Assembly (NCBI GenBank): GCA_963764045.1
Contig: CAVXQW010000013.1
Span: forward strand, 40 to 64,039
Direction of reading: 5' to 3'
Source: an uncultured bacterium
GTDB lineage: Bacteria > Desulfobacterota > Deferrimicrobia > Deferrimicrobiales > Deferrimicrobiaceae
DNA length: 64,000 bases
Below, piece after piece: positions 11,153-44,924 of the stretch (within the stretch, counting starts at the first letter, position 1; each line of letters starts with the position of its first letter). Below the pieces are notes generated by a model. It saw only the letters and a program-made list of their open reading frames with translations, was not told where the DNA came from and searched no databases. The position numbers and the translations under genes were made by a program.

Positions 11153-11243
11153 AGCTTAAATCCGTAAATTACGGTGGGGTCCGAGCGCCGCCGCACGCGT
11201 TTCGACCGGGGATCGGGAAATCGGCGGGGATCGAGAACTCCGC

Positions 11244-11271
11244 TTGACGGTACGCCGCGGCCTGATAGAAT
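11244..11271 (+). promoter_or_regulatory. sigma70-type promoter for the sigma54 activator gene
   Basis: TTGACG (11244-11249), 16-nt spacer, TAGAAT (11266-11271). AGGAGGA Shine-Dalgarno at about 11293, ATG at 11310. Confidence 0.5.
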
Positions 11272-11309
11272 ATCAAACACCTTTTTAAATCCAGGAGGAA
11301 CGTGACTTC

Positions 11310-13006
11310 ATGGCGAACGTCTACCCCGAGGTTGTTTCCCCCCACGATTCCGAGTGGCGGGATTACATCCAGCGGGGATGCGAGCGGGGGGTCCAGGGCA
11401 GGATCATCGAATCGTGGCAGCGGTGCGGCCAGGTGGGCCTCAACCCGCATGAGCGGAATATCCCCGCCCCGATCGAGTCCACGCAGTTCAATAAGCGGAT
11501 GCAGGAGAACCTCGAGATCGTCGAGTTGTACCAGTTCTACATACGCCGCTTTTCCGGATTGCTCGAACAGCTGGGCGCATGCTCCTTCGTCTGCGATACC
11601 GACGGTTTTATCCTGGCGCGGGCGGGGTACGGCAAGGTGCTGAACTTCTTCGACAATTTCTCCCTCTCCGAAGGAAGTTCCTGCTGCGAAAAAGTGATCG
11701 GGACGAACGCTCCGAGCCTGGCCCTCATCACCCGCGAGCCGGTGGTGGTCACGGCCGACGAACATTACACGAAGACCTACCACCCCGCGTTCTGCGCCGC
11801 TTCGCCGATTCTCGATGTGAACCGCAATCTCCTCGGATGCGTGGATATAACGAAGTTCTTCGACCCCAACATCTCCGAGGAACTCCGGAAGCACCTCCTG
11901 AACCTGGCGATCTCCCTCTCCGACATGATCCGCAACGAGGTCTTTCTCGGGCGGCTCACGAAGTCTTCCCCCGTGTATCACCCGGCGTGGGGCGCAGCCC
12001 CCCGCGGACCCTCACGATCCTTCAAAAGGAGGCGTTCCGGACGACAAGCCGCGTCCCTCCTTTCGCCCGGATCGTCGGTTCGGCCCCGCCGCTCGCCAAA
12101 GCGATGCAGTCGGCGAGGATGTACGGCCGCAAGGAGGGGAACATCCTCATCCTCGGGGAGACCGGGACCGGGAAGGAGCTCTTCGCCCAGGCGATTCACA
12201 ATGAGGACCGGCGGGCGAACGGCCCTTTCGTGACGGTCAACTGCGCCGCGATTCCGCTGGAGCTGGCGGAGAGCGAGCTGTTCGGGTACGAGAGGGGATC
12301 GTTCACGGGTGCGAGGAACGAAGGCCACCCCGGGAAGTTCGAGATGGCCCACCAGGGGACGATCTTCCTCGACGAGATCAACTCGATGCCGCTGCCGATC
12401 CAGGCGAAGATCCTGCGCGTCGTGGAGACGAAACGGGTCACGCGGATCAACGGGAAGAGGGAGATCCCGGTCGATTTGCGAATCATCGCGGCGAGCAACC
12501 GGGTGCTGGCCGACGAGGTGGCCGCCGGAACGTTCCGCAAGGATCTCTTCTACCGGCTGAACGTCCTTCCGTTGCGGGTTCCCGCGCTGCGGGAGATGAA
12601 GGAGGACATCCCCGCCCTCCTCGACGCCTTCTTCCAGACGTGCGTGACGGAGCACGGCGTCTGCCGGAAACGGATTTCGCCGGAAGCGTTGCGGCACCTG
12701 GTCGCGTACGACTGGCCCGGCAATGTGCGGGAGCTGAAGAATTGCGCGGAGTACCTCTGTTTCACGGTGGAAACCGACGTGGTCGCGGAACACCACCTCC
12801 CCCCCGAGATCCTCGCCCGGAGGGTCGAGGCGCCCGAGCCGCCGGCGGCGCCGGAGGAGCCGAAGAACCTCGGGTCGCTCGAACGGACGTTCCTCATCGA
12901 GACGATGCACCGGTTCCACGGAAACGCGGTCGAGGCTGCGAAGTCGCTCGGGATCTCCCGGAGCACCTTGTACCGCAAGCTCAAGAAGTACGGGATCACG
13001 CCGTAG
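11310..13006 (+). pseudogene. sigma54-dependent transcriptional activator, AcoR-like (sensor + AAA+ + Fis HTH), one frameshift near 11980-12000
   Basis: AcoR-type N-terminus RIIESWQRCGQVGLNP.. and a GAF-like region in ORF 11310-12233. The AAA+ core ILILGETGTGKELFAQAIH..GSFTGA..GKFEMAHQGTIFLDEI, and RELKN and SLGISRSTLYRKLKKYGI, are in ORF 11579-13006. Confidence 0.85.
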
Positions 13007-19833: not shown

Positions 19834-21570
19834 CTACCAGTTGAAAACCTTGTCCAGATCCTCGTCCGTCACCTGGAAGGTTACGTTGTGGGGCGGAATC
19901 GACTCCTTCAGGAAAAACCGCGGCAGCCGGTCGTGGTGCTTCGTGAACCCGGCGCGGGTGTTGAAGTCCCTTTCCATCTTGAGGATGCTCATCCCGAGCG
20001 CCGTGACGTCGTCCCCCGTCAGGGTGATGCCGTGGAAGGCACCGATCATGTCCAGGAGAGCCTGGAAGGTCTCGGGCTGGTCCAGGAGAGGGAAGGCGAT
20101 GAAGAGGCACATCCCGGTGGAATCGACCGCCGCCGTCGCGATCTGGAGGTTTCGGGACATCTCGACCTGCCCTTCCGGCTTGAGAGGGTCCAGGTTCCCG
20201 CCGGACTTGAGGACGTTCGGGCCCACCGAGTACCCCGCCGTGTGGTCGGCGCCCTGGGTGCTCGTCGCGTACGTCACCCCGATCCCCATGACCGCCCGCG
20301 GGTCGTACGCCGCCATCGCCTGCCCCTTGCACACGGGGACCCGCTCGACCCCGAAGACCTTGCCCGTGACCTCGGCGCCGCAGCCGAGGATCCTCCCCAG
20401 CGGCGTTCCCTTCCCGATCTCTTCCACGAGCCGGATCGCACCCGCCCCGTCGCCGAAGGGGATCAACCCCGCCTCCATGGCGACACCCACCGCCGCGCCC
20501 GTATCCATGGTGTCGACGCCGAAGTTGTCGTCGAGGAAGTCGAGCCGGGCGATGACGTCGAGGTCGTCGATGCCGCAATTTCCGCCATGGGCCCAGACCG
20601 TCTCGTACTCCGGCTGCTTCGTCAGGTACTTGCCGTCCTTGTCGTGGTAGATCCCGGAGCACTGGATCACGCAGCCGCGATGGCAGCCGTGGGTGGCGAG
20701 TCCTCCCCGCTTCACCTCGAGCTCCGCCTGCACCTCGCCGCTGATCTTCGCCGCGTTCTCGAACCGCCCCGACCGGAAATTGTTCGTGGGGTAGGCGCCC
20801 GCCTCGTTGAGGACGTTGGTCAGCACGTTGGTGCCGTAGGCGGGGAGTCCCTCCCCGGTGATGGGGTGCTTCCGCAGCCCCTCGACGAACCGGCGGTTCG
20901 CATCCCGGAATTTCTCCGGGTCTTTGGGCGGCCGCATCTTCAACCCGGTGTCGTCCAGGATGATCGCCTTGACCCGCTTCGCCCCCATGACGGCTCCGGT
21001 CCCGCCGCGCCCGCAGTGCCGCGTCGGCCGCTTCTCCGGATCGGTGCATGCGATGGAGGCGGCCAGCAGCTTCATCTCCCCCGCGGTGCCGATGGTCATG
21101 TACGCCGCGCGGTCGCTGTACTGGCCCTTCAGCTTCTCGATGAGGGGGTAGTTCGGGAGATTCTTCAGGCTGTTGTCGACCGAGACCTCGACGCCGTCCT
21201 TGTTGATGAAGATCTTGTAGAGGTCGTCCCCCTCCGGCTTCCCCTCCAGCACGATCGCGGCGTACCCCAGCCTCGCCAGCACCTGCGCCGCCTGCCCGCC
21301 GGCATTCGATTCCTTGATCCCTCCCGTGAGGGGGCTCTTGCACCCCACCGAGATCCGTCCGCTCATGGCGGCGGGCGTGCCGCTGAGGGATCCGGGGGCG
21401 ATGACGAGCTTGTTCTCCGCGCCAAGGGGATGGCAAAGAGGGTGGACCTCCCTGGAGATGATCGCGGTGGTCATCGCACGCCCGCCGAGCCCGGCGAACT
21501 CGCCGACCGGTTCGGTCCTGAACTTCGGCCCGCCCTCCGCCCCCATGTCGACCCTCAGTATCTTGTCCAT
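19834..21570 (-). CDS. aor: tungsten-containing aldehyde:ferredoxin oxidoreductase family protein
   Basis: 578 aa starting at ATG 21570 (MDKILRVDMG..) inside ORF 19834-21696. AOR N-domain GLGGRAMTT..KLVIAPGSLSGT..SPLTGGIKESNAGG. Fe-S/pterin region THGCHRGCVIQCSG. AAGGAGAA Shine-Dalgarno. Confidence 0.9.
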   Translation of the reverse strand: MDKILRVDMGAEGGPKFRTEPVGEFAGLGGRAMTTAIISREVHPLCHPLGAENKLVIAPGSLSGTPAAMSGRISVGCKSPLTGGIKESNAGGQAAQVLARLGYAAIVLEGKPEGDDLYKIFINKDGVEVSVDNSLKNLPNYPLIEKLKGQYSDRAAYMTIGTAGEMKLLAASIACTDPEKRPTRHCGRGGTGAVMGAKRVKAIILDDTGLKMRPPKDPEKFRDANRRFVEGLRKHPITGEGLPAYGTNVLTNVLNEAGAYPTNNFRSGRFENAAKISGEVQAELEVKRGGLATHGCHRGCVIQCSGIYHDKDGKYLTKQPEYETVWAHGGNCGIDDLDVIARLDFLDDNFGVDTMDTGAAVGVAMEAGLIPFGDGAGAIRLVEEIGKGTPLGRILGCGAEVTGKVFGVERVPVCKGQAMAAYDPRAVMGIGVTYATSTQGADHTAGYSVGPNVLKSGGNLDPLKPEGQVEMSRNLQIATAAVDSTGMCLFIAFPLLDQPETFQALLDMIGAFHGITLTGDDVTALGMSILKMERDFNTRAGFTKHHDRLPRFFLKESIPPHNVTFQVTDEDLDKVFNW

Positions 21571-21638
21571 GCGCGTTCTCCTTTTCTGCCGGATGTTAAA
21601 TTGGAGCAAATGTACGCAGGTGACCAGGAGAAAAAGCA

Positions 21639-21652
21639 GCAATACCTGTGCC
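21639..21652 (-). promoter_or_regulatory. sigma54 (-24/-12) promoter upstream of aor
   Basis: The minus strand reads aCGGCACAGGTATTGCtg, giving GG-N10-GC geometry with GGCAC and TTGC. It lies about 70-80 nt upstream of the aor ATG. Confidence 0.6.
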
Positions 21653-32394: not shown

Positions 32395-34173
32395 TCAGAA
32401 GTTGCGGGTGATGAACCCGCCGATGAAGTCCCTGTCGCCCAGCAACTGGTTGGTCCCCCAATAATTCGTGTAATTGAGCCCCGCCTGCCAGTGGGTCGGG
32501 GCGCTCTGGTTGAAGAGGATGTACGTGTTCATCGATTTGGCGCCTTGCAGGTAGTTCGCGGTGAGCGTCGGCGTATTCCCCTTGACGGCCTGGAAATAGG
32601 TGACTCCCGGGACGACGGTCCACCCCTTGATGAGCTTGTTGTCGTAGGCCCAGTTGAAGTCGACGGTGTAGCCGTACGAGTACTCATCCCCTACTCCGGC
32701 GATGGTGTTGTAGGTCGTGGGCCCCGCCCCCGCATCCCCCGTGACGGTGCCGTCCTTCCAGAACCCGTAGCCGGCCGCGGCGGCCTGCATCACCGGGACC
32801 CCGCCTATGTTACGGTAGTAACGCCTGCCGGGGCTGACCCCGGGGTATCGAATCCCCACGGCCTCGCCGGTGAACGTGGCGGTGTCCGCCCTCAGTATAT
32901 CAAGGAACCATCCGTGATCTCCCGGGGTCAGGCTCAGGATCCCCGTCAGGTGCATCTGGTACTTCTCCGTGTCGATATACATGGGGCAATTGACCGGGGG
33001 GGCCGCGTTAAAGATTGCATCCAGCGAGCCACCCGGGTTGTAACAGCTGGTCAGTGCGATGGCATCCTTCGGACGGTACGACAGCTCCCAGCCGACCGCC
33101 CAGTTCCCCACGGGGAAGTTTGCGCTGACCCCGTACAGCTTCCGGTTCTCCAGGTACTTCCACTGGGCCTCTCCATCGGCCAGCAAGCTCAGGACCGGCA
33201 TCTTGTCGTGGTAGTTCATGAAGTAGACCCCGAGGTCCAGGGAGACGCCTTCCGGCTTGTAGTGCATCGAGACGCCGTACTGCCCGCTGTTCTTCGGAGT
33301 CAGGTCGTTCGCGAAGGCGACAGGGATGGTGTTGGCGGGGAACGCCGGATCGGAAGCCGGGTCCAGTCCGCCGAAGTTCACGAAGTCGGGGGAAGAGGGG
33401 TTGCCATTAAGATACAGCGACTGACTGCCCTTTCCCAGAATGTCCGCGACGGAAAAATAGGTGCCGACGGGAGGCAACCGGTTCCGGTTCCAGTAGAATT
33501 GATAGTACGCCTCGGCATTGACGCCGTGGCCCAACCCCGACGCGACGCTGAGGATCGGAGCCGGGATGACGGCCTCTTTCAGCTGCGTTCCCGGAATCGA
33601 GAGCTTCTGGAAGTCCAGCGAGTTGGTGGCGTTGATCCCGCCGAGCGCGAAGATGCTCTCTCCCCAGTTGATGACCTGGTTCCCCAACCGGACACGGGCC
33701 CGCTGGGAGCCGATGTTCATGTCCTTGCTCACCCAGAGGTCCAGAAGCTGGATGTCCCGTGCGACCTGGTCTTTCGCCGCTGGAGAGAGCTCCGTCCGCT
33801 GGGTGTCCGTCGCCTTGTAGTCGTAGAGCGCGGTCGCCCGCGCCATGAACTTGATATTATCCGGGAACTTCAACAGCAGCTCCGGGGTGAACTTCAGATA
33901 CGTGGTGAAGAGGTTGTACTTGTCGTAGTTCAGGTTGCCGTCGTCGCCGTTGGAGGAAACAGCGGTGTTCGCCGCGGAGTTTATCCTGGGGTCGCCGATC
34001 AGGTTGGGGTTCTGGTTGACCATCCGCATCCCGGCGCCGAGGGTCAGCTGCATGTCCAGGGATCCCTTGACGGAATCGCTGGCTTCGAACTGGAACGCGT
34101 GCGCCGCGCCGGCGCACAGCACCATCATGCAAACCGGCATCCACAAACTCTTGTAGAGGGCTCTCATTCGCAT
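32395..34173 (-). CDS. DUF1302-family outer-membrane beta-barrel protein
   Basis: Signal peptide MRMRALYKSLWMPVCMMVLCAGAAHA. LGNQVINWGESIF motif and a C-terminal ..GGFITRNF aromatic terminus. ATG 34173 carries an AAGGAG Shine-Dalgarno inside ORF 32395-34473. Confidence 0.75.
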   Translation of the reverse strand: MRMRALYKSLWMPVCMMVLCAGAAHAFQFEASDSVKGSLDMQLTLGAGMRMVNQNPNLIGDPRINSAANTAVSSNGDDGNLNYDKYNLFTTYLKFTPELLLKFPDNIKFMARATALYDYKATDTQRTELSPAAKDQVARDIQLLDLWVSKDMNIGSQRARVRLGNQVINWGESIFALGGINATNSLDFQKLSIPGTQLKEAVIPAPILSVASGLGHGVNAEAYYQFYWNRNRLPPVGTYFSVADILGKGSQSLYLNGNPSSPDFVNFGGLDPASDPAFPANTIPVAFANDLTPKNSGQYGVSMHYKPEGVSLDLGVYFMNYHDKMPVLSLLADGEAQWKYLENRKLYGVSANFPVGNWAVGWELSYRPKDAIALTSCYNPGGSLDAIFNAAPPVNCPMYIDTEKYQMHLTGILSLTPGDHGWFLDILRADTATFTGEAVGIRYPGVSPGRRYYRNIGGVPVMQAAAAGYGFWKDGTVTGDAGAGPTTYNTIAGVGDEYSYGYTVDFNWAYDNKLIKGWTVVPGVTYFQAVKGNTPTLTANYLQGAKSMNTYILFNQSAPTHWQAGLNYTNYWGTNQLLGDRDFIGGFITRNF

Positions 34174-34180
34174 CGCTCCT

Positions 34181-35563
34181 TTACCGCTCACTGATCGAGC
34201 GAAGGTTTTCACCCGTGTACCAGTCCGACTTGAAACGCGGCGAGTTTGACTCCACGTAATACACCATGTCCTTGCCCGTCCCGATCGTGCTCTGGTCGCA
34301 GACGTACCGTCCGCTGACCAGGTCGTACGCGACGAACGGGAAGTGGTCGAACGTGCCGCCAAGCTCCCAGATCGGGATCGGGTACCCTTCCTCGACCTTC
34401 CACAGGCCTCCCTTGGCATCGTACTGGTCGGCGATGAGCGCCAGATAGGTATCCTCGTCGAAATAGAAGACACGCTTCGGCATGGTATGCCGCATCCCCT
34501 TCTTCAGGGTCGCCTCCACCATCCACACCCGGTGCAGCTCGTACCGCCGGCTCTCGTTGGCCAGGTGCTTCAGCTGGAGCACGTCGTGCAGCGGCTTCCG
34601 GAAGTCGTACATGCCGAAGCTGTTGTACGGGACGTACATCTCCTTCTTGCCGACGATCTTCCAGTCGAACCGGTCGGGTCGCCCCAGGAAGACCCACGCC
34701 GTGTCGAGCGGGTACTGGTTTTCGAACCCGATCTGCGGAGCGTCGTAGGCGTAAGCGGGCAGACGACGCACGCGGCGCTGCCCAGGGAAGTAGAAGAAGG
34801 CCTCGCGGTCCTTGTTCGTATAGTCGCAGATGAAGATCCGCTGCCCGGCGAGCGCCGCCGGGCTGTCGTACCCGAAGTCGATGCAATACATGAGATCGCT
34901 CGCCTGCTTCAGGGTGTTGGTCCCCTTTTTCCCCCAGGGGTAGAACGTCGACTGCGGGCCGGCCGGGGCGAGCCACTCCGTACTGCCGGGGCGTGGCGAG
35001 ACCGCCGTGGTGGTTCTGGGCATTTCGTTCCCGATTCCCTTGTACCGCATCAGGAAGTTCCAGATGATTTCCGACCCGTCTTTCGGAAACGGAAACAGGA
35101 TGCCGGGAAGATCCGCGGCCAGCAGATCGGTGCCGTCCTTGCTGAGCTTGGCGGCCCCCGCCGCGTTTTTCCGGATGTTCGCCTCGATCCAGTCCGGGTA
35201 ACCCGCGTTCCGGTGGGACGGGTACACGTCCATCCGGTACCCCTGGGTCTGCTTGACCATCTGCACCTGCCCCGGGCTCAGCTTGTCCTTGTACTTGTCG
35301 ACGTTGGAGGCGTCGATGGAGAAGAGCGGCTTTTCATCCTTGAATTTCCAGTAATCGCCGCGGTATTTCCCCAGGGACCACCCCGGCAGGGGTACGTCCT
35401 TCCCGTCCCATGCGGGGATCGTCCCGTCCTTGTTTCCCGCCTTTTCGGCGCCTGCGTAGTTCAGGTCTTTCCCCAGCCGGGCCACCTCCTGGGGCGTTGC
35501 CCCCCATGCCGTGACCGCTGCCGCCGCGATGAGCGTGACCACAACCAGAACCCGTTTCATCAT
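34181..35563 (-). CDS. DUF1329-family periplasmic/outer-membrane (LolA-like) protein
   Basis: Signal peptide MMKRVLVVVTLIAAAAVTAWG. GTIPAWDG.., ..FYFPGQRRVRRLP.., ..YELHRVWMVEA are typical of the family. GGGAGGAG Shine-Dalgarno. Confidence 0.75.
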   Translation of the reverse strand: MMKRVLVVVTLIAAAAVTAWGATPQEVARLGKDLNYAGAEKAGNKDGTIPAWDGKDVPLPGWSLGKYRGDYWKFKDEKPLFSIDASNVDKYKDKLSPGQVQMVKQTQGYRMDVYPSHRNAGYPDWIEANIRKNAAGAAKLSKDGTDLLAADLPGILFPFPKDGSEIIWNFLMRYKGIGNEMPRTTTAVSPRPGSTEWLAPAGPQSTFYPWGKKGTNTLKQASDLMYCIDFGYDSPAALAGQRIFICDYTNKDREAFFYFPGQRRVRRLPAYAYDAPQIGFENQYPLDTAWVFLGRPDRFDWKIVGKKEMYVPYNSFGMYDFRKPLHDVLQLKHLANESRRYELHRVWMVEATLKKGMRHTMPKRVFYFDEDTYLALIADQYDAKGGLWKVEEGYPIPIWELGGTFDHFPFVAYDLVSGRYVCDQSTIGTGKDMVYYVESNSPRFKSDWYTGENLRSISER

Positions 35564-35670
35564 CTCCTCCCCCCCACTGTCTGGATTACTTCCCGACCCA
35601 TTAAACCCAACGATTCGCCGAACAAATCCCGGAAGCTCGTTTCGAGTGAAAACCGATGCGAGCAAAAACA

Positions 35671-35685
35671 GCAAACTTCGTTCCA
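35671..35685 (-). promoter_or_regulatory. sigma54 (-24/-12)-like promoter upstream of the DUF1329 operon
   Basis: The minus strand reads TGGAACGAAGTTTGC (GG-N10-GC). It lies about 110 nt upstream of ATG 35563. Confidence 0.5.
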
Positions 35686-35810
35686 ATGCTGTGCTACGAC
35701 CGCTACCAAAAGCAAAATATCATAAAAAACTTGCGTATAGCAACGTTAATTCTGTTTATAAAACAACAGTCGCTGCTCGCCTCCGCCCTTGTTCATCATG
35801 GTGATTCCCT

Positions 35811-35867: not shown

Positions 35868-36606
35868 TCACCCATACCGTTCCCTCAATATTTCCCTCAA
35901 GTTATCCAGGTCGGCGTCGGGGGACTCTTCGAGCAGGCATGCGATCGCGCCCGAGACCCTCGCGGCGGCGAAGCTGTTCCCCCGGAAATTCCTCTCCCGG
36001 GGCAGACCCGGAAGGGAGCGGGGCCACGGGGAGGCAAGACATTCGCACGGATCGCCGTGACGGTACCTCAGCGTGTCTTCCCCGAGGCGCCCGTCCCCCT
36101 TTACGCCGATGACCTCGTCGTACGAGGCCGGTACGCTCTCCCCCTTCGATCCGTTCCGCGCGGACGCCACCAGGATGATCCCCGCCCGCGCCGCGTCGCG
36201 GCAAAGGCGGCGCAGCGAGGAAGCGTCCTGCGCCGCCTGCCATCCCAAGGCTGAGATTCACCACCCTTGCACCCGCCTCCAGAGCGTACGACAACGCGCC
36301 CTCCAGGACATCCGGCGTCGTGGCGAGCGCGCCATTGAAGATCTTGAGGGCGAAGAGATCGGCCTCGGGCGCCACGTGACGGATCACCGCGGCGATGGCG
36401 GTTCCGTGGCCGGTCGTGTCCTCGTAGTTCGACCCCCGATGGACCGAGCCGTCCTCCCCGCGGAAGATCCCGGCCCCTTCGATCCTCCCCCCGACATGGG
36501 AGTGACGCGGGTTGACGCCCGAGTCGACGACGACGACGCGGACCCCGAACCCTGCCGGCACACCGGGAGGGCGAACGCCCCAGGGGATCGCGCAACGCCT
36601 ACGCAC
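35868..36606 (-). pseudogene. qhpE: subtilisin-like S8 serine protease QhpE (leader peptidase of QhpC), one frameshift near 36240
   Basis: Asp VRVVVVDSGV and His TTGHGTAIAAVI are in ORF 35902-36669. Ser FRGNSFAAARVSG is in ORF 35868-36248. The putative GTG start at 36606 overlaps the qhpF stop. Small size (about 245 aa) and no signal peptide, as expected for QhpE. Confidence 0.7.
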
Positions 36607-38338
36607 GGACGTCTTCCTCCAAAGTCCGCGTTTCGTCGGCGCAGACGCGAAGGAACGATTTGTACGCACCCCGTTGCCGCATCAATTCCCCGTGCGTCCC
36701 AAGGTGGCTGATCCGCCCGCCCGAAAGGACCACGATCAGATCCGCATCCCGGACGGCGTGGATCCGATGGGTCACGATCAAGGTCGTCTTCCCCTCCATC
36801 AACTCCGCGATCGCGCGCCGGACACGATCTTCCGAGAGGAGGTCGAGGGAGGAAGTCGCCTCGTCGAGGATGAGGATCTCCGGAGCGCGGAGGAACGCCC
36901 GGGCAAGAGCCACCCGCTGCCGCTGCCCCGCGGAAAGGGATAACCCCCGCTCTCCGACGATGGTCGAAAGGCCGAGCGGCAGGGAGCGGACGAACTCCGT
37001 CAAGTCGGCGTTCGCGACGGCATCGGCGATCCGCGCGGGGCCGGCGTCGGGTGTCCCGTACCGGATGTTCTCCTCGAGGGTCCCTTGAAAAAGGTACGGC
37101 TCGGTGGAGACCTGTGCGATCCGCCGCCGGAGCGTGGCGCGGCGAAGCCGCCCCAACGGGACTCCGTCAAGCCGGATCTCCCCCCCTTGCGGCTCGTAGT
37201 AGCGGAGGAGAAGGTCCACGAGCGTCGATTTTCCGACGCCGCTCTCCCCGACGAGCGCCACCGTCTTTCCGGCGGGGAGGGTCAGCGACAGGCGGTCGAG
37301 GATACGGGCCTCGCCGCCGTACGCGAAGACGACCCCGTCAAAGACGATCCCCTCCTTCAGGGAGACGAACTCTTCCGCCCCTTCCGGGTCCTTCTCCACG
37401 GGAACGTCGAAAAACTCGAACACGCGCGCAAGCGAAGCCCTCCCTTTCCGCAACGCCGCGTACTGTCCAAGGAGGTTCTGGATCGGCGCGATCACCTGCA
37501 TCTGGAAGGCGGTAAATGCCACAAGGGTCCCGACGGAGATCGCCCCGTCCCGGACCATCGAGCCGCCGTAGAGGAAAGCGAGCGTGGCCGAGCACCCCAG
37601 CACGAACGAGGGGATCCCGCGGGACAGGGAGAAGATCGTCTGGAACCGGAGAACGGAGGCCACCAGCGACAGGTTCTCCTCCTCGAACCTTCGCCGTTCC
37701 TGGCATTCCGTGGCGCTGGAACGCACCAGTCGTATTCCCGTGAAGGTATCGATGATGCGGGTCCCCACGGCGGCGTTCTTCTCCCGGAGCTCGCGGCTCA
37801 TTCCCGTGATGACGTTGCGGGTCAGCCAGAGGCCCAGCACGCCCAACGGGACGAGGACGTTGCTCACGAGGAAGAGGGACCAGGACATGGCGACGAGGAT
37901 GGCGGAGGCGACGACGAGCCGGACGGAGCTGGTGACGAAGGCCATCGGGACGTCCACGAGAATCCCCTGGACCTCCACCATGTCGTTGTTGAGCCGCGCG
38001 ACGATCTCCCCTACCCGCGTCCGCCCGAAGAATCGCATCTCGGCGCGCTCCAGATGATCGAAGAGGGCGACCCGCATGGCGACGAGGATCTTCGCAGACC
38101 CTCGCGTGTAGAGGTAGCTGCTGACGCCGCCGAGGACCATCCCCGCGGCGGCGAAAAGAACCATGGTGAGGAGAAGGGGGGGCAGCGCCGCCCAGTTTCC
38201 GCGCAGGATCACGTCGTCCACCAGCCTCTTCGACAGGAAAGGGGCGTACAGGGAAGCCGCCGTCGCGAGAAGGGACAGTGCGAAGGTCGCGGCGAGAATT
38301 CCCCGCTGGGGCCGAACGAATCTCCACAAAGAGACCAT
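36599..38338 (-). CDS. qhpF: ABC exporter, fused TMD-NBD (QhpF-like peptide exporter)
   Basis: 579 aa starting at ATG 38338 (MVSLWRFVRPQRGIL..). Six-TM exporter domain followed by GESGVGKSTL, LSAGQRQRVALARA and ILILDEATSSLD. The longer ORF 36599-39274 is an antisense read-through. Confidence 0.85.
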   Translation of the reverse strand: MVSLWRFVRPQRGILAATFALSLLATAASLYAPFLSKRLVDDVILRGNWAALPPLLLTMVLFAAAGMVLGGVSSYLYTRGSAKILVAMRVALFDHLERAEMRFFGRTRVGEIVARLNNDMVEVQGILVDVPMAFVTSSVRLVVASAILVAMSWSLFLVSNVLVPLGVLGLWLTRNVITGMSRELREKNAAVGTRIIDTFTGIRLVRSSATECQERRRFEEENLSLVASVLRFQTIFSLSRGIPSFVLGCSATLAFLYGGSMVRDGAISVGTLVAFTAFQMQVIAPIQNLLGQYAALRKGRASLARVFEFFDVPVEKDPEGAEEFVSLKEGIVFDGVVFAYGGEARILDRLSLTLPAGKTVALVGESGVGKSTLVDLLLRYYEPQGGEIRLDGVPLGRLRRATLRRRIAQVSTEPYLFQGTLEENIRYGTPDAGPARIADAVANADLTEFVRSLPLGLSTIVGERGLSLSAGQRQRVALARAFLRAPEILILDEATSSLDLLSEDRVRRAIAELMEGKTTLIVTHRIHAVRDADLIVVLSGGRISHLGTHGELMRQRGAYKSFLRVCADETRTLEEDVRA

Positions 38339-38346
38339 CCGCTTTC

Positions 38347-39369
38347 TCACGACGCCTCCTCCCGGTAGTAGCACATGTAGCGCGCGTCGCAGAACTTCGG
38401 CGTTTTCCGGAGCGCAACAGCCTTGGACGCCGCCTCTTCCCGGGAGGCCCCCCGTTCCACCAGGTCGAGGACCCCGCGAACCATCTGGAGGCCCACGAGC
38501 TTCCGGTAACTCGAGGCGCCGCGTCCGGAGATCTTGATGGAAGTCACTCCCGTGCGGGCGAGGTCGAAGAGCGCGCAGAGCCCGCAGGGGCCGTTCGGGA
38601 TCCCGTCGGGAGTGACCGAATTGCCGCAACCGTTCTGGAACCAGACCCAATCCTTGAACGCGCCCATCAGTTCCCGCGCCCGTTCCTCTTCCTCCCCGGT
38701 CAGGGATCCCTCGGGCTCTTCTCCCAGCGGAAGGAAACGGTGCGGGACGCCCGGGAGCTGCACGCAAAGGGCGCCGACGCTCCGGTGCGTGGTCATGCAG
38801 TACCCTTCCTCGAACACGCACCCTTCGTTCATGACGAACGCTTCCGTCTCCAGCCGGCCCGCCGCCGCATCGCAAAGGGACGCGATGTCCGCCACGCCGA
38901 GACTGCGGGGGAAGATCACCCGACGGACCCCCAGCTCCTCGAGGAAATCGACCATGCCGGGGTTGAGCGCCGCCATCACCGAGCTGGCGTGGACGGAAAG
39001 CGCGGGGAAGGCGCACCGCAGCGCCACGAGGAAGCCCATGTCGGAGACGATGACGCCATCGATGCCGGATTCCCGCGCGAGCCCGCCGATCATGGGCAGG
39101 AGAAGGTCCTGCTGCTCCGGCGTGTAGTAGGGGGCATTGAACGTCACGTGGACGGGGATGCCGAAGGCGTGGGACCGCTCGGTCAGGAGAGAGACGTCGT
39201 CCCGTTGAACGAGGTTCCCCGCCACCGGCCCCCTTCGGTTGAGCCAGAAGGCGCCGCCGTACCGCTTGAGCCACTCGGGGGGGACGTACCCGCAGAAGAA
39301 CTCGCCCGCACCGTTCCCGGCAAGCATCTCCACCTCGTCGGGGTGGCTGACCGGTACGGTGAGCTTCAT
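38347..39369 (-). CDS. U32-family Fe-S protein, UbiU-like
   Basis: MKLTVPVSHPDEVEMLAGNGAGEFFCG.., GIDGVIVSDMGFL, VIFPRSL, Cys pattern EGCVFEEGYC..GALC..GPCGLC, SIKISGRGAS. ATG 39369 overlaps the upstream U32 stop (ATGA). 8 nt separate it from qhpF. Confidence 0.75.
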   Translation of the reverse strand: MKLTVPVSHPDEVEMLAGNGAGEFFCGYVPPEWLKRYGGAFWLNRRGPVAGNLVQRDDVSLLTERSHAFGIPVHVTFNAPYYTPEQQDLLLPMIGGLARESGIDGVIVSDMGFLVALRCAFPALSVHASSVMAALNPGMVDFLEELGVRRVIFPRSLGVADIASLCDAAAGRLETEAFVMNEGCVFEEGYCMTTHRSVGALCVQLPGVPHRFLPLGEEPEGSLTGEEEERARELMGAFKDWVWFQNGCGNSVTPDGIPNGPCGLCALFDLARTGVTSIKISGRGASSYRKLVGLQMVRGVLDLVERGASREEAASKAVALRKTPKFCDARYMCYYREEAS

Positions 39370-40436
39370 CCCGTCGCCCGATCCCCCATGGCCGACATCC
39401 ATGGATGGCTTCCTGCCGGGGCGGGCAGGGATGCCCCGGCTTCCGTGGCCCCGGGCGGAACGGTAATGACGATCCGGTCCACCCGCCGGGAGGAGGAAAT
39501 CCGCCCCAGGATGCTCCCGGTGACGGAGGACGGAACCGCGTGGTAATACGCGTTCCCGAGGTTCAGGAGGTCTTTCTCCGCCCCGTTCCCCCCGGGAACG
39601 GGCAGGCGGAACTCGACGGCGTACTTCCGGCACTCCGACCGGCAAGGAGTGCCGGGGACGAATTTTGCGGCGGATTCCTGGTGCATCGCCCCCAACAGGC
39701 AGGCGCGCCCCATGGTGACGAACAGGTACGGAACGTGAACCGACAGCCTCTCGGACCGGCTCTCCCACTCGTCCGCCTCGAGCGGCTGGAGGAACGGATC
39801 GATTTCCCGGCGCCCGATGCCGTACCGCTCCATCAGGGCCCGGAAACCCGGTGCGAGCTCCCCAGACCGGCAGAGGGCCGCCCGGGCAGACGCCGGCGCC
39901 TGCGGGGAATCGAAATATTCCGCGAGCCGCGGGTCGCGCAGCATCTTGTGCGTCAGGCGGCCCAGGACGATCACGAGCTTCGGGTGGCGGGACCTCAGGC
40001 GGTGGACCGTCCCCCAGTCGCCGGCGACGACCTCGAAGCCCTCCACTCCTTCCAGCGTCCGGACCGCTTTTTCCGCCTTGGCCAGGCCGTCCCGCGACAG
40101 CGGCGGCAGGACGAGGGATAAGGCGACCCGCCCCGCCTGCGCCGCCACGACCCAGGAGCGGATCGCCTTCCCCGTCGGGAGGAGCTGCTCACACGTCTCG
40201 CTGCCGACGTACACCCGCGACGGAACGGCCCCGGGGAGGTGCCGGGGGAACGTTTCCGCGAGCATGGCGCGAATATCGGGCGTCACGGCGGCGCGCAGCG
40301 TCTCGTCAAGGGAGACCTCCCCGCGAAGAACCGAGGGCAGCGGGCCGGCGAGAAAGGGGAAGGAGATCCCCACTTCCACGCCGTGTTCCGCGCCCCCCCG
40401 CGGAGACGCCTCCCGGTGATGCCGGTTCGGGAGCAA
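39366..40436 (-). CDS. U32-family Fe-S protein, UbiV-like
   Basis: RVYVGSETCEQLLP, FEVVAGDWGTVHRL, LFVTMGRACLLG..GTPCRSECRKY (C..C-x19-C-x3-C), LLNLGNAYYH. The true start may be an internal GTG near 40379. The ORF start lies 13 nt downstream of the qhpB stop. Confidence 0.7.
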   Translation of the reverse strand: MLPNRHHREASPRGGAEHGVEVGISFPFLAGPLPSVLRGEVSLDETLRAAVTPDIRAMLAETFPRHLPGAVPSRVYVGSETCEQLLPTGKAIRSWVVAAQAGRVALSLVLPPLSRDGLAKAEKAVRTLEGVEGFEVVAGDWGTVHRLRSRHPKLVIVLGRLTHKMLRDPRLAEYFDSPQAPASARAALCRSGELAPGFRALMERYGIGRREIDPFLQPLEADEWESRSERLSVHVPYLFVTMGRACLLGAMHQESAAKFVPGTPCRSECRKYAVEFRLPVPGGNGAEKDLLNLGNAYYHAVPSSVTGSILGRISSSRRVDRIVITVPPGATEAGASLPAPAGSHPWMSAMGDRATG

Positions 40437-40449
40437 GCGGCCGGGCCCC

Positions 40450-41532
40450 CTACCGATGCTGGACGCGGAAGTGCGTGAGGACCGCGTCCCCGGGGGTACT
40501 GATGTGCTTCAGCAGCTTCATCGTTCCCGTGTCGTAGATCAGGATCGAGTCGCCGCCGCCGCCCAGGTACACCTTCTTCCCGTCGGAGCTGATCTGGATC
40601 GTGTAGTAGCTCTTGTCGACGTCGGCGGTGGCCAGCAACTCGTTCGTCGCGAAGTCCCTCTTCTCGACCTTGTTGAGCACCGTGTAGTAATACTTCCGGT
40701 CGGGGGAGACGACCGCCGAGAACTGGTTGTAGAGAGGACCGATGTCGGTCACGAGCCGCATCGACCCTTCCGTGCTCTTCTTCCTGAGGTCGATGGTGTA
40801 GTACCCCTGGTACGTGAGGTTGTTCGAGGTGTTCAGGCTGCCGACCAGGATCATCGCCATCCCGGACTGGTCGTAAAGCCGCCAGATGTTCAGGGAGATC
40901 TGCGGGTCGACGCCGGTCGTGGTCGGGTGGGCAAGCCCGAGGAAGTTCACCCGCTTCCCCGTCATGGGGTCGTAGACGAAGACGTCGCGCCCCGTGATAT
41001 AGAACTCGCTCCCGTCGTAGCCGAAGAAGATGTTCGTGCAGCCGCGCGGGACCTCGATCTCCTTGACGACCTTCGGAGGATCGACCCCGACGTCGAATAC
41101 GATCACTTCGGGCGTCATGTCGACGATCTCGTCCGAAAGCCACCGCTGCCGCAGGGAGAGGGCGTAAAGAAGGTTTGGGTGCGCCGGGTTGATCTCGATG
41201 TCGAGGGCCCGGACCTTGACGTCGCCCGATCCGGTGCGGAACGTGCGGACCACCTTCTTCCCCGCCAGGTCGAGCTGCTCGATCTGCTGCCCCCAGTCGG
41301 TGATGGTGAAGATCTTGTCGAGGTCCCTCGGGTCCCAGGTGAAATTGGTGACCTTCTTCCCCTTGGTTTCGATCGTGGCGACGATCTCGTCCTTGTCGCC
41401 GTCGATGACGTTGAACTTGTTGTGGAGCATCCCCTGCAGGAGGATGTCCTTGCCGAGTGCCGGGGCGTTGCCCGAGGCGAGGAGCAGGGCCGTCCCGAGC
41501 AGCACCAACGCGAAAAAGGCCGTTCTCTTCAT
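40450..41532 (-). CDS. qhpB: quinohemoprotein amine dehydrogenase beta subunit (7-bladed propeller)
   Basis: Signal peptide MKRTAFFALVLLGTALLLASG, size about 360 aa, repeated blade-like segments, and its position after qhpC. The assignment rests mainly on context plus family resemblance. Confidence 0.7.
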   Translation of the reverse strand: MKRTAFFALVLLGTALLLASGNAPALGKDILLQGMLHNKFNVIDGDKDEIVATIETKGKKVTNFTWDPRDLDKIFTITDWGQQIEQLDLAGKKVVRTFRTGSGDVKVRALDIEINPAHPNLLYALSLRQRWLSDEIVDMTPEVIVFDVGVDPPKVVKEIEVPRGCTNIFFGYDGSEFYITGRDVFVYDPMTGKRVNFLGLAHPTTTGVDPQISLNIWRLYDQSGMAMILVGSLNTSNNLTYQGYYTIDLRKKSTEGSMRLVTDIGPLYNQFSAVVSPDRKYYYTVLNKVEKRDFATNELLATADVDKSYYTIQISSDGKKVYLGGGGDSILIYDTGTMKLLKHISTPGDAVLTHFRVQHR

Positions 41533-41585
41533 CGTATCGTTCCCTCCGTGGGATTATTCCGTGTCATGCGCCGCACCGCGGCTTC

Positions 41586-41909
41586 CTACCACTCCGGCTT
41601 GACGACCTTGAGCTTCATCCAGTCCTTCATCGCCCGGGTGCAGTCGGCGTTCCAGTCCGGGTTGTTGTACGTGTCCGGCGCCTGTCCGGGCCACCAGCAG
41701 TACATGTCGGTGGTGCCGAAGAGATCCGTCTCGATCGGCGTGCAGAGCTGTTTCGTGGAGCCGGTCCAGTCGATCTCGTACCCGGGGTTGAACACGGACG
41801 TGCAGGTGTGCATGAACGGGATGCTCCCCTGCGCCTCCACGACCGGGAGTTCCGCCTTTCCCTTTTCGATCTTCTTCCCCTTGCGGTTGACCCCTTTCAG
41901 GTGCTTCAT
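41586..41909 (-). CDS. qhpC: quinohemoprotein amine dehydrogenase gamma-subunit precursor (RiPP-like, CTQ-bearing)
   Basis: 107 aa with a Lys-rich leader MKHLKGVNRKGKKIEKGKAELPVVEAQG. The core CTSVFNPGYEIDW..QLCTPIETDLFGTTDMYCWWPGQAPD matches the CTTSFDPGWEVD..LCQPMEADLYGC.DPCWWPAQV.D pattern. ATGA overlap with qhpD. Confidence 0.85.
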   Translation of the reverse strand: MKHLKGVNRKGKKIEKGKAELPVVEAQGSIPFMHTCTSVFNPGYEIDWTGSTKQLCTPIETDLFGTTDMYCWWPGQAPDTYNNPDWNADCTRAMKDWMKLKVVKPEW

Positions 41910-43321
41910 GCGATCCCCCTTTCGCCGAGCACGGCATCGAGAAACGTCGGCGTTTCGTTTTGTATGCGAACGTAGGTCCGAAGGCCCAGAAGGAACAGCT
42001 CCTTGATCCAGCGGCAATAGTGCGTCGAAGGGGCGAAGAGGTCTCCCTGCCGGAGGTACGCGTCGTGGTAGCACCCCCCGGCGCAGAAGTTCTTCGCCCA
42101 GCAGGCGTCGCATCCGGACTCGCGTCGACGCCTCGCCCCGTCGAGGAACCGGGCGCGGGCATCCGAAGCGATCCCGCGGGACGGGTCGCCCATGGATTCT
42201 CCGACCCCGCAGAGCCGGTGGCACGGGTAGAGAACCCCCGAGGGGTCGGCGGCCAGCATCCCGATCCCCGCCCCGCACGGGTACGGCATCGGGTCCCCGC
42301 GGTGGATCAACCCGAGGATCTGCGTCATGTTCGAGAACGCCGGCATCCGGCGTTCCCGCACGTCGTCGACGTATTCCACGGCCAGATCCCGGAACCCGTC
42401 CAGCACCGCGTCGAGCTCTTCCCCGGTGAGCGCGGTGCGGCTCCCCTCCTTGGCGCTTGCCGGGGCGAATCCCACCTCGTCGAACCCGATGTCCCGGAGG
42501 TGCCGGAACGTCGTTCGCACGTCGACGCCGCCGCTCCCCAGGGTGACGCGCGCCGCCAGCGGATACCCGCCCCGGTTTTCCATCAAGTGCGCTATCCCTC
42601 GCTTCACGTCGTCGTAGGAGCCGCGCCCCGTCGCGTAGGGGCGATTGACGTCGTGAACCTCGCGGGGGCCGTCGACGCTGACGCACACGGAGACGCGGTT
42701 CTCCTTAAGGAACCGCGCGATCTCCGCGGTCAGGAGCGTACCGTTGGTCGTGAGGGAAAAGGAGATCTCCTTCCCTCTAGCCTTGGCCATCGCTCGCGCT
42801 TCGTGAACCGCGACCCGCAGGAGGGGGAAACGGAGGAGCGGCTCCCCCCCGAAGAGGACGACGGACACCTTCCTGACCTCCCCGGAATGGTCGAGCAGGA
42901 ACCCGACGCTCTCGCGGAGCGACTCCGGGGACATCTCCCCCGGCTCCCCTCCCCCGTCCACCGGCGGGACGCACCCTTCCTCGCGGTCCTCGTAGCAGTA
43001 GCGGCACGCGAGGTTGCAGGAGGTCGTCAGCATCAGGACGAGCGTCCGGAGCCGCAAGGGAGGATGGGTGGGCCGGAAAGCCGGCCCGTGTCCCTCGGCG
43101 GGTTCCAGAAGTCGCGCCCGGCGAAGATCCGACAGGATCTCCGCCGGCACGGCGCCGGGATCGGACGATGCAAGGGCGGACAAGGCATCCCGCGCCCCGT
43201 CGTCCATCCGGAACAGTCCCCCGGATTCCGCCGCGTAGAGATACGTCTCCCCTTCCGCCGTGAAACTGCGGTGCGGGAGAAGAGCCGCTTCGACGCCGGA
43301 CCTTCGCGCGATGTTTCCCAT
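41906..43321 (-). CDS. qhpD: radical-SAM/SPASM thioether-forming enzyme QhpD
   Basis: MLTTSCNLACRYCYE, FGGEPLL, and SPASM Cys cluster PCGAGIG..YPCHRLC..GCDACWAKNFCAGGCYH..YCRW. Confidence 0.85.
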   Translation of the reverse strand: MGNIARRSGVEAALLPHRSFTAEGETYLYAAESGGLFRMDDGARDALSALASSDPGAVPAEILSDLRRARLLEPAEGHGPAFRPTHPPLRLRTLVLMLTTSCNLACRYCYEDREEGCVPPVDGGGEPGEMSPESLRESVGFLLDHSGEVRKVSVVLFGGEPLLRFPLLRVAVHEARAMAKARGKEISFSLTTNGTLLTAEIARFLKENRVSVCVSVDGPREVHDVNRPYATGRGSYDDVKRGIAHLMENRGGYPLAARVTLGSGGVDVRTTFRHLRDIGFDEVGFAPASAKEGSRTALTGEELDAVLDGFRDLAVEYVDDVRERRMPAFSNMTQILGLIHRGDPMPYPCGAGIGMLAADPSGVLYPCHRLCGVGESMGDPSRGIASDARARFLDGARRRRESGCDACWAKNFCAGGCYHDAYLRQGDLFAPSTHYCRWIKELFLLGLRTYVRIQNETPTFLDAVLGERGIA

Positions 43322-43337
43322 GGGGTCCGCGCGCCCC

Positions 43338-44924
43338 TTACTGGACCGGCCTCTGGACGTACAGAGGGATGGTGGCGAGCAGATAGCCGCGGGCGGACAG
43401 CGTCCCGCCGCCGGGCGCGGCCCAGGAGGCCGTCACCCAGACGTCCCCCATGTTGTTTTCCTGCATGGCCCGTTTCGGGTTGGGGCCTTCGTTCCCCGGG
43501 GTGAAGAGCCCGTTTCCGTCGATCGTCCCGACGAACTCCACGTCGTGGTCCTCGTTGGAACTCGCAAGCTCCACGACGTTCCACGCCGCCGGGACGCGGC
43601 CGATCTCGATGTCGTCCGCGGTGCCCGCGGCGCCGTCGGCGCCCTTGCTGCAGGCCATGGCGTCGAACTGGACGAGCTGCTTCACGGCGTACCCCAGCCC
43701 TCCGGTGCGGGACATCGCGGGGGACGGAACCACCTTGATGTAGTCGACGGCAGTGTAGACCGCGAAGAGCTTGTCTGCCGCAGCGTTCCCGGCTTTTGCG
43801 TTCCGGTACCCAGAGGGGGCCTTGTCGGCGACGTCCACGGTGACCACAACCTTCGTCGGCGTCGCGGAAACGACCTTATTGACGGTCACCCCGTCGCCCA
43901 GGCTCACCTCTTTCGAAAGGCCGGTCCCGACGACCGTCACGGTGGCACCCTTCGTCCCGGCCCGGAGGGCCTTCGGCATCACGGAGAGGATCCTCGGGGA
44001 GCTCCCTGCGAAGGCGCGGGTTTCAACGCCGCGCAGCTCGAAGTGCGGGTCGTCGAACCGGACCCCGGTGAAGGTCGAACCGTCCATGGAGATGTGGAAG
44101 ACTTCGCGGATCGGCTTCCCGGCCAGGGTGCCGGAAGCCCGCCAGGCGTAGCCGCCGTAGAGGGTCGCCTTCCCCTCGATCGGCTGCTTCTCCCCGTTCT
44201 CGAACTCCACCGTTCCGGCGTAGGAATAGAAGGGCTCACCCGTCTTCTTCAACTGGATCTCGCCACTGTACGCGCCTTTCCCGGCCTGGTACCCGGCAAC
44301 GACCCACTTCCCCTCGCCCGCCTTCGGGCGGGAGGAGACCCACTGCTTCCATTCCGGAGTCTCCAGCGGGAACCGTTTCTGCAACTCCTTCACGCAGGCG
44401 GCGAGCGTTTCGTCCCAGTCGAGGACGTCCTGGAGCTGGTAGAGCCACATCGGAAGGACGCCCGAGTGCATGTTGGCGAGTTTCGGCCAGTCTTCCGGGG
44501 CGCGGCGCTGGAGGGCGGTCTTCGCGTAGCTGTGGCACCGCACGCACACGTCGATGATCAACTGGCTGTCGACCTTCTCCTTGGTGTCCCGCTTCTCGAG
44601 GGTGTAGGCGTACGGCGCCACCTCGGCGGGGGCCAGCCCCTGCTTGTCGGAGAAGTAGAGGAGGAGCGATTCCTTCTCCTCCTTGGTGATCGACAGCCCG
44701 TGGATCCGTTTATGGCGCCACAACGTCTCTTCCCACGCTTCCGGCACCTGCCGGAGGTAGGAGATCCTGGAGACGAGTCCCCCGTTGTTCTTGTGGCAGT
44801 CGGTGCACATCTTCAATACCAGGTCGCTGGTGACCGGGATCCCCGTCTCGCCGAGGGCCGCCCACGCCGTCGCCAGCATGAACGCCAGGCCAACGATAAA
44901 ACACAATCCCATCTTCCTTCGCAT
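43338..44924 (-). CDS. qhpA: quinohemoprotein amine dehydrogenase alpha subunit (dihaem cytochrome c + beta domains)
   Basis: Signal peptide, two haem sites CTDCH and CVRCH in the N-terminal about 170 aa, then three beta-sandwich-like domains. 528 aa. Confidence 0.85.
   Translation of the reverse strand: MRRKMGLCFIVGLAFMLATAWAALGETGIPVTSDLVLKMCTDCHKNNGGLVSRISYLRQVPEAWEETLWRHKRIHGLSITKEEKESLLLYFSDKQGLAPAEVAPYAYTLEKRDTKEKVDSQLIIDVCVRCHSYAKTALQRRAPEDWPKLANMHSGVLPMWLYQLQDVLDWDETLAACVKELQKRFPLETPEWKQWVSSRPKAGEGKWVVAGYQAGKGAYSGEIQLKKTGEPFYSYAGTVEFENGEKQPIEGKATLYGGYAWRASGTLAGKPIREVFHISMDGSTFTGVRFDDPHFELRGVETRAFAGSSPRILSVMPKALRAGTKGATVTVVGTGLSKEVSLGDGVTVNKVVSATPTKVVVTVDVADKAPSGYRNAKAGNAAADKLFAVYTAVDYIKVVPSPAMSRTGGLGYAVKQLVQFDAMACSKGADGAAGTADDIEIGRVPAAWNVVELASSNEDHDVEFVGTIDGNGLFTPGNEGPNPKRAMQENNMGDVWVTASWAAPGGGTLSARGYLLATIPLYVQRPVQ

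Follow-up and report, generated by a model that had tools for sequence, protein, structure and literature searches.

A U32-type protein pair as candidate oxygen-independent tryptophan hydroxylase in a quinohemoprotein amine dehydrogenase operon of Deferrimicrobiaceae

The 64,000-nt stretch of contig CAVXQW010000013.1 analyzed here (the window), from an uncultured member of the Deferrimicrobiaceae, carries at positions 35868-44924 of the minus strand eight co-directional, closely packed genes in the order qhpA-D-C-B, V-like, U-like, qhpF and qhpE (Table 1). Both the structural set (qhpA, qhpB, qhpC) and the maturation set (qhpD, qhpE, qhpF) of a quinohemoprotein amine dehydrogenase (QHNDH) operon are present, and between qhpB and qhpF lies a pair of genes related to the U32 superfamily, one of them only remotely, whose products are here called the V-like and the U-like protein, or V/U. 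Our comparative analysis of this and related loci leads us to propose, with a probability of roughly 0.6, that V/U is an O2-independent and probably prephenate-dependent hydroxylase for the cofactor tryptophan of QhpC that replaces the flavoprotein QhpG.

The assignment of qhpA is supported by four Pfam QHNDH alpha domains, a match to PDB 1jmx_A (E 5e-82) and the haem motifs CTDCH and CVRCH, and qhpB, despite its weak model score, has a position conserved in all loci. The qhpD and qhpC genes overlap by 4 nt, as do the V-like and U-like genes (ATGA), and the U-like stop is separated by 8 nt from the start of qhpF at 38338, whose location directly after the U32 gene is a conserved feature of operons that have V/U and no QhpG. 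An earlier reading of the letters without database searches (the sequence-only reading) had described the eight minus-strand genes, their tight junctions, both overlaps and the 8-nt gap, all of which are borne out; it had also let the pair begin 13 nt after qhpB. Homologues of the V-like protein open with MEVGLSFPF, and by comparison with them the GTG at 40379 is the probable start codon, which gives a distance of ~70 nt instead.

Table 1. Genes of the qhp operon and neighboring features in the window
Feature	Positions	Strand	Basis and remarks
qhpA, dihaem alpha subunit of QHNDH	43338-44924	-	TIGR03908 462 bits
qhpD, radical SAM/SPASM thioether-forming maturase	41906-43321	-	TIGR03906 396 bits (below cut-off 453); PF04055
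qhpC, 107-aa gamma-subunit precursor with cofactor Trp (CWW)	41586-41909	-	NF037958 94 bits; PF08992
qhpB, beta-propeller subunit	40450-41532	-	TIGR03907 127 bits (below cut-off)
V-like partner, ~337 aa	39366-40379	-	Remote U32 paralogue by hhalign; reading frame open to TTG at 40436
U-like U32 iron-sulfur protein, 340 aa	38347-39369	-	PF01136 E 9e-30
qhpF, ABC exporter	36599-38338	-	PF00664 (ABC_membrane) and PF00005 (ABC_tran)
qhpE, S8 protease, frameshifted	35868-36669	-	NF049966 matches both halves
DUF1302/DUF1329 gene pair	32395-35686	-	Outer-membrane and LolA-like proteins
Aldehyde:ferredoxin oxidoreductase	19834-21642		AFOR_N and AFOR_C

In the characterized systems, QhpC is first cross-linked by QhpD and then oxygenated at Trp43 by QhpG, in a complex of QhpC, QhpD and QhpG, after which the product leaves through QhpF and loses its leader to QhpE (PMC7876137); both oxygen atoms introduced by QhpG are taken from O2 (Oozeki et al. 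2021, PMC7876137). Searches of the window by tblastn with ten full-length QhpG queries from Proteobacteria and Acidobacteria gave nothing better than E 0.09, and no QhpG was found within 10 kb of the other V/U-only loci. The sequence-only reading, which had seen no monooxygenase of this type in the 64 kb, was thus correct as far as QhpG is concerned. Analysis of the Pfam content of the V/U-only operons revealed no other candidate hydroxylase that is conserved among them, and it is for this reason that V/U is proposed to hydroxylate the tryptophan.

A genome scan seeded with QhpA, with one genome per species, yielded 80 loci, of which the 56 with qhpF within 10 kb were used for counting. QhpG alone occurs in 44 of these (Pseudomonas, Oceanospirillales, Rhodobacterales, Acidobacteria and others), V/U alone in eight (seven Deferrimicrobiaceae and Aneurinibacillus thermoaerophilus) and both in two, namely Thauera mechernichensis (L047) and a Litorilituus metagenome-assembled genome (MAG; L085), while the remaining two have neither (L021, and L084 with a QhpG fragment at the contig edge). 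Nearly every sampled qhp locus with qhpF in view therefore has QhpG or V/U, and the two are distributed in a complementary manner (Fisher's exact p 1.3e-6, for loci that are not phylogenetically independent). The QhpG calls were checked with model NF049967 (cut-off 240 bits), which gives 567 bits for P. putida, 548 for Thauera, 425 for Litorilituus and 237 for Solibacteraceae. The isolate name of the Litorilituus MAG starts with 'ETNP', presumably for the Eastern Tropical North Pacific, an oxygen-minimum zone. QhpG and V/U also co-occur in three metagenome loci from a scan seeded with the V-like protein (L150, L156, L162), so that a strict mutual exclusivity is rejected, with at least five loci carrying both. 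The occurrence of the two side by side in Thauera and Litorilituus matches the pattern of UbiI, UbiH and UbiF together with UbiU and UbiV (PMC6747719). The replacement of QhpG by the in-operon U32 pair as hydroxylase for cysteine tryptophylquinone (CTQ), the core of what the sequence-only reading suggested, is thus strongly backed by comparative genomics; the distribution that it had raised as a possible either-or of qhpG and an in-operon U32 pair is complementary but not exclusive, and the link to anaerobes is loose.

The exchange can be seen in a comparison of two loci with related core genes. The V/U-type metagenome lineage L088 is 42% identical in QhpA, 52% in QhpD and 56% in QhpC to the QhpG-type Acidobacteria locus L041, and less so to the window (36%, 37% and 40%, respectively). 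In L041, qhpB and qhpF are separated by only 16 nt and QhpG is encoded upstream of qhpA, whereas L088 has V/U between qhpB and qhpF and no QhpG. Because L088 is nearer to the L041 backbone, yet has V/U and lacks QhpG, this contrast is, at the level of sequence and gene order, the signature of a non-orthologous displacement.

The U32 proteins UbiU/UbiV, TrhP and RlhA are associated with hydroxylation of aromatic rings that needs no O2, prephenate being the donor of oxygen in the case of ubiquinone (PMC6747719, PMC10990095), and most U32 subfamilies are described as uncharacterized in the literature on this superfamily. The U-like protein is ~20-25% identical to E. coli UbiU and scores far below the cut-offs of the equivalog models for UbiU (NF047963, 64 bits, with 67-90 bits for its relatives; cut-off 440) and TrhP (NF011996, 48 bits; cut-off 534). 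A sequence search of the PDB with the U-like protein returned no match. Its AlphaFold (AF2) model is of high confidence, with a predicted local distance difference test score (pLDDT) of 88 and a predicted template modeling score (pTM) of 0.88, and has the U32 peptidase Mk0906 (5d88, E 6e-7) as its best PDB match, followed by generic TIM-barrel enzymes. In an alignment of 129 family members, C184, C191 and C202 are conserved to 100% and align with the UbiU ligands C169, C176 and C193, while C248, which aligns with UbiU C232 and would be the fourth ligand, is conserved to 86% and C26 to 98%. Four further cysteines are likewise present in all 129 sequences: C262 and C265 in the motif GPCGLC and, close to the C terminus, C327 and C333. 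Their invariance makes a second cluster or metal site, for which UbiU has no counterpart, plausible, and C262/C265 could form such a site together with the two C-terminal residues.

The V-like reading frame matches no Pfam or NCBIfam model, and among its relatives only 2 of 92 show weak matches to PF01136. Members of the V-like family are labeled 'hypothetical protein' in their sources, and none has a precomputed Pfam domain. A profile of the 92 sequences aligns by hhalign with the profile of the U-like family at a probability of 95% (E 2.6e-8, 243 columns), and on the strength of this profile comparison the V-like protein is a highly diverged U32 paralogue. The same program gave probabilities of 16% (13 sequences) and 1% (92 sequences) against E. 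coli UbiV, a single-sequence template and thus a poor test. C63, C227, C246 and C250 are invariant in the 92 sequences (CXnCX18CX3C), an arrangement that matches the unusual layout of UbiV, in which the first Cys lies far upstream of a C-Xn-C-X3-C group (PMC6747719). HMMER searches (E <= 1e-3) found the V-like family in 944 representative clusters at the 50% identity level. The name 'UbiV-like' that the frame had been given by eye thus holds for its remote U32 kinship and its cysteine layout, although the kinship is seen only by profile-profile comparison. Of the four-Cys ligand sets proposed at the same time, the cysteines of the V-like pattern SETC..GRAC..GTPCRSEC turned out to be invariant, but GPCGLC of the U-like protein is not the fourth ligand that aligns with UbiU. 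The V-like set and the UbiU-aligned U-like set are predicted to be [4Fe-4S] ligands, and V/U would accordingly be a two-subunit iron-sulfur (Fe-S) enzyme of the U32 superfamily, composed of a canonical subunit and a diverged, unannotated paralogue.

Several observations indicate that the two proteins belong together. In 73 of 73 loci, V is immediately followed by the U gene. Natural single-chain V-U fusions occur in high-GC organisms (P0326, 705 aa; P0357, 677 aa; and L128, 633 aa, at 10012-11913, whose C-terminal half matches PF01136). Adjacency and fusions argue that V and U work as a complex, probably a heterodimer. The pair spans several phyla, including Deferrimicrobiaceae, Bacillota, Acidobacteria-like metagenomes and some Proteobacteria, and in V/U-only operons it is usually placed between qhpB and qhpF. 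The set of qhpC/A/D/B, V, U, qhpF and qhpE is found in Schinkia (L001), Brevibacillus (L002) and Aneurinibacillus (L086), in the Deferrimicrobiaceae loci L008-L013 and L015 and in the metagenome lineages L087, L088, L090, L091 and, in a divergent form with no full QhpA or QhpB, L003. Similarly, seven of eight contexts of U-like homologues show the order qhpC/A/D/B-V-U-qhpF-qhpE (Schinkia sp. CFF1, Brevibacillus sp. NRS-1366 and five contigs from metagenomes, one of them the divergent L003), and the eighth (L089) has the pair without qhp genes.

The pair resembles UbiU-UbiV (YhbU/YhbV in E. coli) in several respects. Both consist of two adjacent genes, one for a canonical U32 protein and one for a shorter, divergent partner; the V-like protein shares the UbiV-type motif, and of the four UbiU-type ligands, three are invariant cysteines in the U-like protein. 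Moreover, both occur beside or in place of a flavin monooxygenase, which for UbiU-UbiV carries out the same step with O2 (PMC6747719), and the three architectures, QhpG only, V/U only and both, parallel those of UbiI/H/F and UbiU/V. In contrast to UbiU-UbiV, the gene order here is V before U, the V-like protein has no BLAST match to UbiV, the U-like protein carries the four extra invariant cysteines, and the presumed substrate is a protein-bound tryptophan rather than a prenylphenol. No match to E. coli UbiT (SCP2) was obtained by tblastn at E <= 1 in the window or any of the fetched loci. A simple neighbor-joining (NJ) tree that includes three reference sequences places all V-partnered U32 proteins in one clade, well apart from E. 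coli UbiU, TrhP and RlhA. The tree also bears on the possibility, raised in the sequence-only reading, that the two proteins nest within UbiU/UbiV near a ubiT gene: the U-like protein stands apart from UbiU, and the loci gave no UbiT match. In addition, V/U hosts include Bacillota, which to our knowledge do not make ubiquinone. An identity with UbiU/UbiV proper is rejected on the basis of scores, lack of UbiT, separate clade and hosts.

Among other known systems, V/U would fill the same slot as QhpG, a qhp maturation gene acting between cross-linking by QhpD and export, but QhpG is a group A flavoprotein whose fold and cofactor are unrelated to the Fe-S, TIM-barrel-type V/U. TrhP and RlhA share with V/U the U32 domain and conserved cysteines and hydroxylate an aromatic ring within a macromolecule (ho5U34 of tRNA and ho5C2501 of 23S rRNA); the U-like family HMM gives 99 bits for TrhP and 76 bits for RlhA. 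They differ as single-chain enzymes with extra C-terminal domains that act on RNA. LodB and GoxB also make CTQ post-translationally, in LodA-like oxidases, and their models are matched weakly by QhpG proteins, but they are O2-dependent flavoproteins, serve another host protein and are unrelated to V/U.

Based on these comparisons, maturation in the V/U-type operons would start with cytoplasmic cross-linking of QhpC by QhpD. The V/U complex would then hydroxylate, free of O2, the equivalent of Trp43 (the second W of CWW) in the thioether-cross-linked QhpC, with prephenate as the probable oxygen donor and the [4Fe-4S] clusters carrying the electrons withdrawn from the indole ring, both by analogy with UbiU-UbiV and TrhP. 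Export of QhpC via QhpF, removal of the leader by QhpE and assembly of QhpC with QhpA and QhpB in the periplasm would follow. Substrate, chemistry and oxygen donor, as well as the pairing of V and U into a heterodimer, are inferences in this scheme.

To see which residues of the substrate are retained, QhpC was aligned to 1jju_C and 1jmx_G and then compared across loci. The QhpC of the window keeps Cys7/Glu16, Cys27/Asp33, Cys41/Asp49 and Trp43 (CTQ and three thioethers), while Cys37, the cysteine of CTQ that is present in QhpC of P. denitrificans and P. putida, is replaced by Thr, as in all Deferrimicrobiaceae loci (L008-L015). In the Deferrimicrobiaceae proteins, one residue is inserted, and a new Cys is found ~18 residues past WW ('NADC'). 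With Cys37 missing, another cysteine may serve to attach their quinone. In QhpC of Bacillota and of the Acidobacteria type, Cys37 is retained and the extra Cys occurs as well, whereas Proteobacterial QhpC lacks the latter. Although all V/U-only QhpC proteins bear the extra Cys, its use as a V/U marker is rejected, since it is present in QhpG-type Acidobacteria operons without V/U and absent in L047 and L085.

These features could point to a role of V/U in another step of cofactor maturation, such as the oxidation that turns dihydroxy-Trp into the quinone, the making of the Cys-Trp thioether or a linkage that involves the extra Cys of non-proteobacterial QhpC, with an unlinked enzyme as the hydroxylase. 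The extra Cys of V/U-only QhpC, the lack of Cys37 in Deferrimicrobiaceae and the four invariant U-like cysteines absent from UbiU would fit such a role, and in the loci with both QhpG and V/U the two could be complementary rather than alternative. We consider this unlikely, since 44 of the 56 qhp loci do without V/U, the extra Cys does not track with the pair, V/U-only operons conserve no alternative hydroxylase, and hydroxylation is the sole chemistry that has been linked to U32 proteins.

V/U is also found in settings other than complete qhp operons. A metagenome scan seeded with a 13-sequence V-like alignment gave 80 further loci, and 17 of the 22 with enough flank are in qhp or qhp-like operons. 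A divergent qhp-like type (L003:3873-13631; L132; L147) encodes a radical SAM protein, a short QhpC-like peptide with CYW for CWW, V, U, qhpF and qhpE, along with a 292-aa protein with a weak match to QhpA domain IV, and has no recognizable full QhpA or QhpB. In L133 (6515-15237), V and U stand in an operon-like cluster with an epimerase, a B12-radical SAM protein, a metallo-beta-lactamase (MBL)-fold protein, an AMP-ligase and an aldehyde dehydrogenase, and in L145 (4968-14433) and L138 the pair adjoins an FG-GAP/ASPIC protein and a multihaem cytochrome. The pairs outside qhp operons indicate that the module has other substrates or acts in trans, and these contexts may mark such substrates.

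Accordingly, the substrate of V/U could be RNA or a small molecule with no relation to QhpC, or the pair could be a general-purpose hydroxylase, in either case merely co-located or co-regulated with qhp. The contexts of L133, L145 and L138 would agree with this, as would the NJ tree, in which members unlinked to qhp are interspersed with qhp-linked ones. However, in V/U-only operons of several phyla the pair usually lies inside, flanked by qhpB and qhpF, with junctions that overlap or nearly abut, and its distribution is complementary to that of QhpG; as a passenger is unlikely to hold this position across Bacillota, Deferrimicrobiota and Acidobacteria-like lineages, we regard a mere co-location as improbable.

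The last gene of the operon, qhpE, carries a +1 frameshift near 36239 that was missed in the sequence-only reading, a 1-nt insertion relative to L012: within 36230-36250, the window reads 'GGGATGGCAGGCGG', compared to 'GGGATGG-AGGCGG' in L012. The frame of 35902-36669 encodes the N half and that of 35868-36248 the C half, which puts the Asp/His part of the S8 protease in a different frame from its Ser part. The gene is intact in relatives (276-293 codons), and the frameshift reflects either an assembly error or a true pseudogene. That V/U itself is a peptidase for QhpC or another qhp protein, as the Pfam name Peptidase_U32 and the JGI label 'putative protease' of relatives might suggest, is very improbable, since the operon already has the leader peptidase QhpE, the conserved Fe-S-type Cys motifs suggest redox chemistry, and characterized U32 members are tied to hydroxylation and not to proteolysis (PMC6747719).

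Directly downstream of qhpE, on the same strand, lies the DUF1302/DUF1329 gene pair (Table 1). Another radical SAM/SPASM protein is encoded in the window, as is, ~15 kb from the qhp operon, an aldehyde:ferredoxin oxidoreductase (AOR). Bacillota and Proteobacteria carry an aldehyde dehydrogenase of the NAD type next to qhp. It is a speculation that the AOR might oxidize the aldehyde product of QHNDH in this organism.

Several points weigh against V/U as the Trp hydroxylase. No U32 protein is known to act on a protein. In vitro hydroxylase activity has so far been shown for no member of the superfamily (PMC10990095). The AF2 model of the V-like protein is of low confidence (pLDDT 62), and Foldseek matches to the PDB are non-significant and of TIM-barrel type only. 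The search for QhpG covers 64 kb of this genome, so that an unlinked qhpG may be encoded elsewhere, and since seven of the eight V/U-only genome loci come from one family, the Fisher test overstates independence. Moreover, five of the 22 well-flanked V/U pairs (L128, L130, L133, L145, L171) as well as L089 are not beside qhp genes. Finally, V/U-only hosts include Brevibacillus and Aneurinibacillus thermoaerophilus, the latter of which is an aerobe; with aerobes among the V/U-only Bacillota, anaerobic adaptation would be only part of the story.

The aerobic Bacillota do not contradict an O2-independent route, because QhpD, a radical SAM enzyme, works in aerobically grown cells, as do TrhP and RlhA. 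For V/U, 'O2-independent' is thus not to be equated with 'anaerobe-specific', and the expectation of the sequence-only reading that the U32 variant would track with anaerobes is met only loosely. The QhpA of the window is 83-90% identical to those on contigs of Candidatus Deferrimicrobium/Deferrimicrobiaceae MAGs, many of them labeled 'Deltaproteobacteria bacterium'. From its genomes, this lineage (MBNT15) is predicted to reduce iron as a facultative anaerobe and to retain cytochrome oxidases (PMC9386147). The sequence-only reading had taken the genome for that of an anaerobe on account of its AOR and many radical SAM and Fe-S genes, a view that therefore holds in part.

Full-text literature searches for U32 proteins together with quinohemoprotein amine dehydrogenase, or for UbiU together with tryptophylquinone, returned nothing, and the word 'peptidase' does not appear in the QhpG paper (PMC7876137). 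Titles and abstracts of papers from 2019 onwards that name QhpC and QhpD give no sign of a V/U route. In NCBIfam (June 2026), QhpG and QhpE are covered by models, but no model claims the V-like or the U-like protein. The maturation route, of which the sequence-only reading knew no description, is thus without prior description in the literature searched. We propose that a known system of cofactor maturation has here swapped one class of enzyme for another, and that a known superfamily acts on a new class of substrate.

All characterized routes to Trp-derived quinone cofactors that we know of use O2 or H2O2, namely QhpG for CTQ in QHNDH, LodB/GoxB for CTQ in LodA-like oxidases and MauG for tryptophan tryptophylquinone (TTQ). 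The V/U operon variant is a concrete candidate answer to the question of how bacteria build such cofactors without oxygen. If confirmed, it would add proteins to lipids and RNA as targets of U32/prephenate-type hydroxylation, assign a function to the large 'hypothetical' V-like family (944 clusters at 50% identity, no Pfam model) and mirror the way in which ubiquinone biosynthesis serves the 'entire O2 range', with a flavin enzyme only, an Fe-S pair only, or both. We see an even chance that the V/U clade represents the first known U32 hydroxylase acting on a protein, which would build tryptophylquinone without O2 and probably with oxygen from prephenate, in Deferrimicrobiaceae maybe through a different Cys. 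It would thereby allow amine oxidation by QHNDH under anoxic respiration with iron or nitrate, and would constitute a portable module that other pathways, such as those of L133 and L145, may have adopted.

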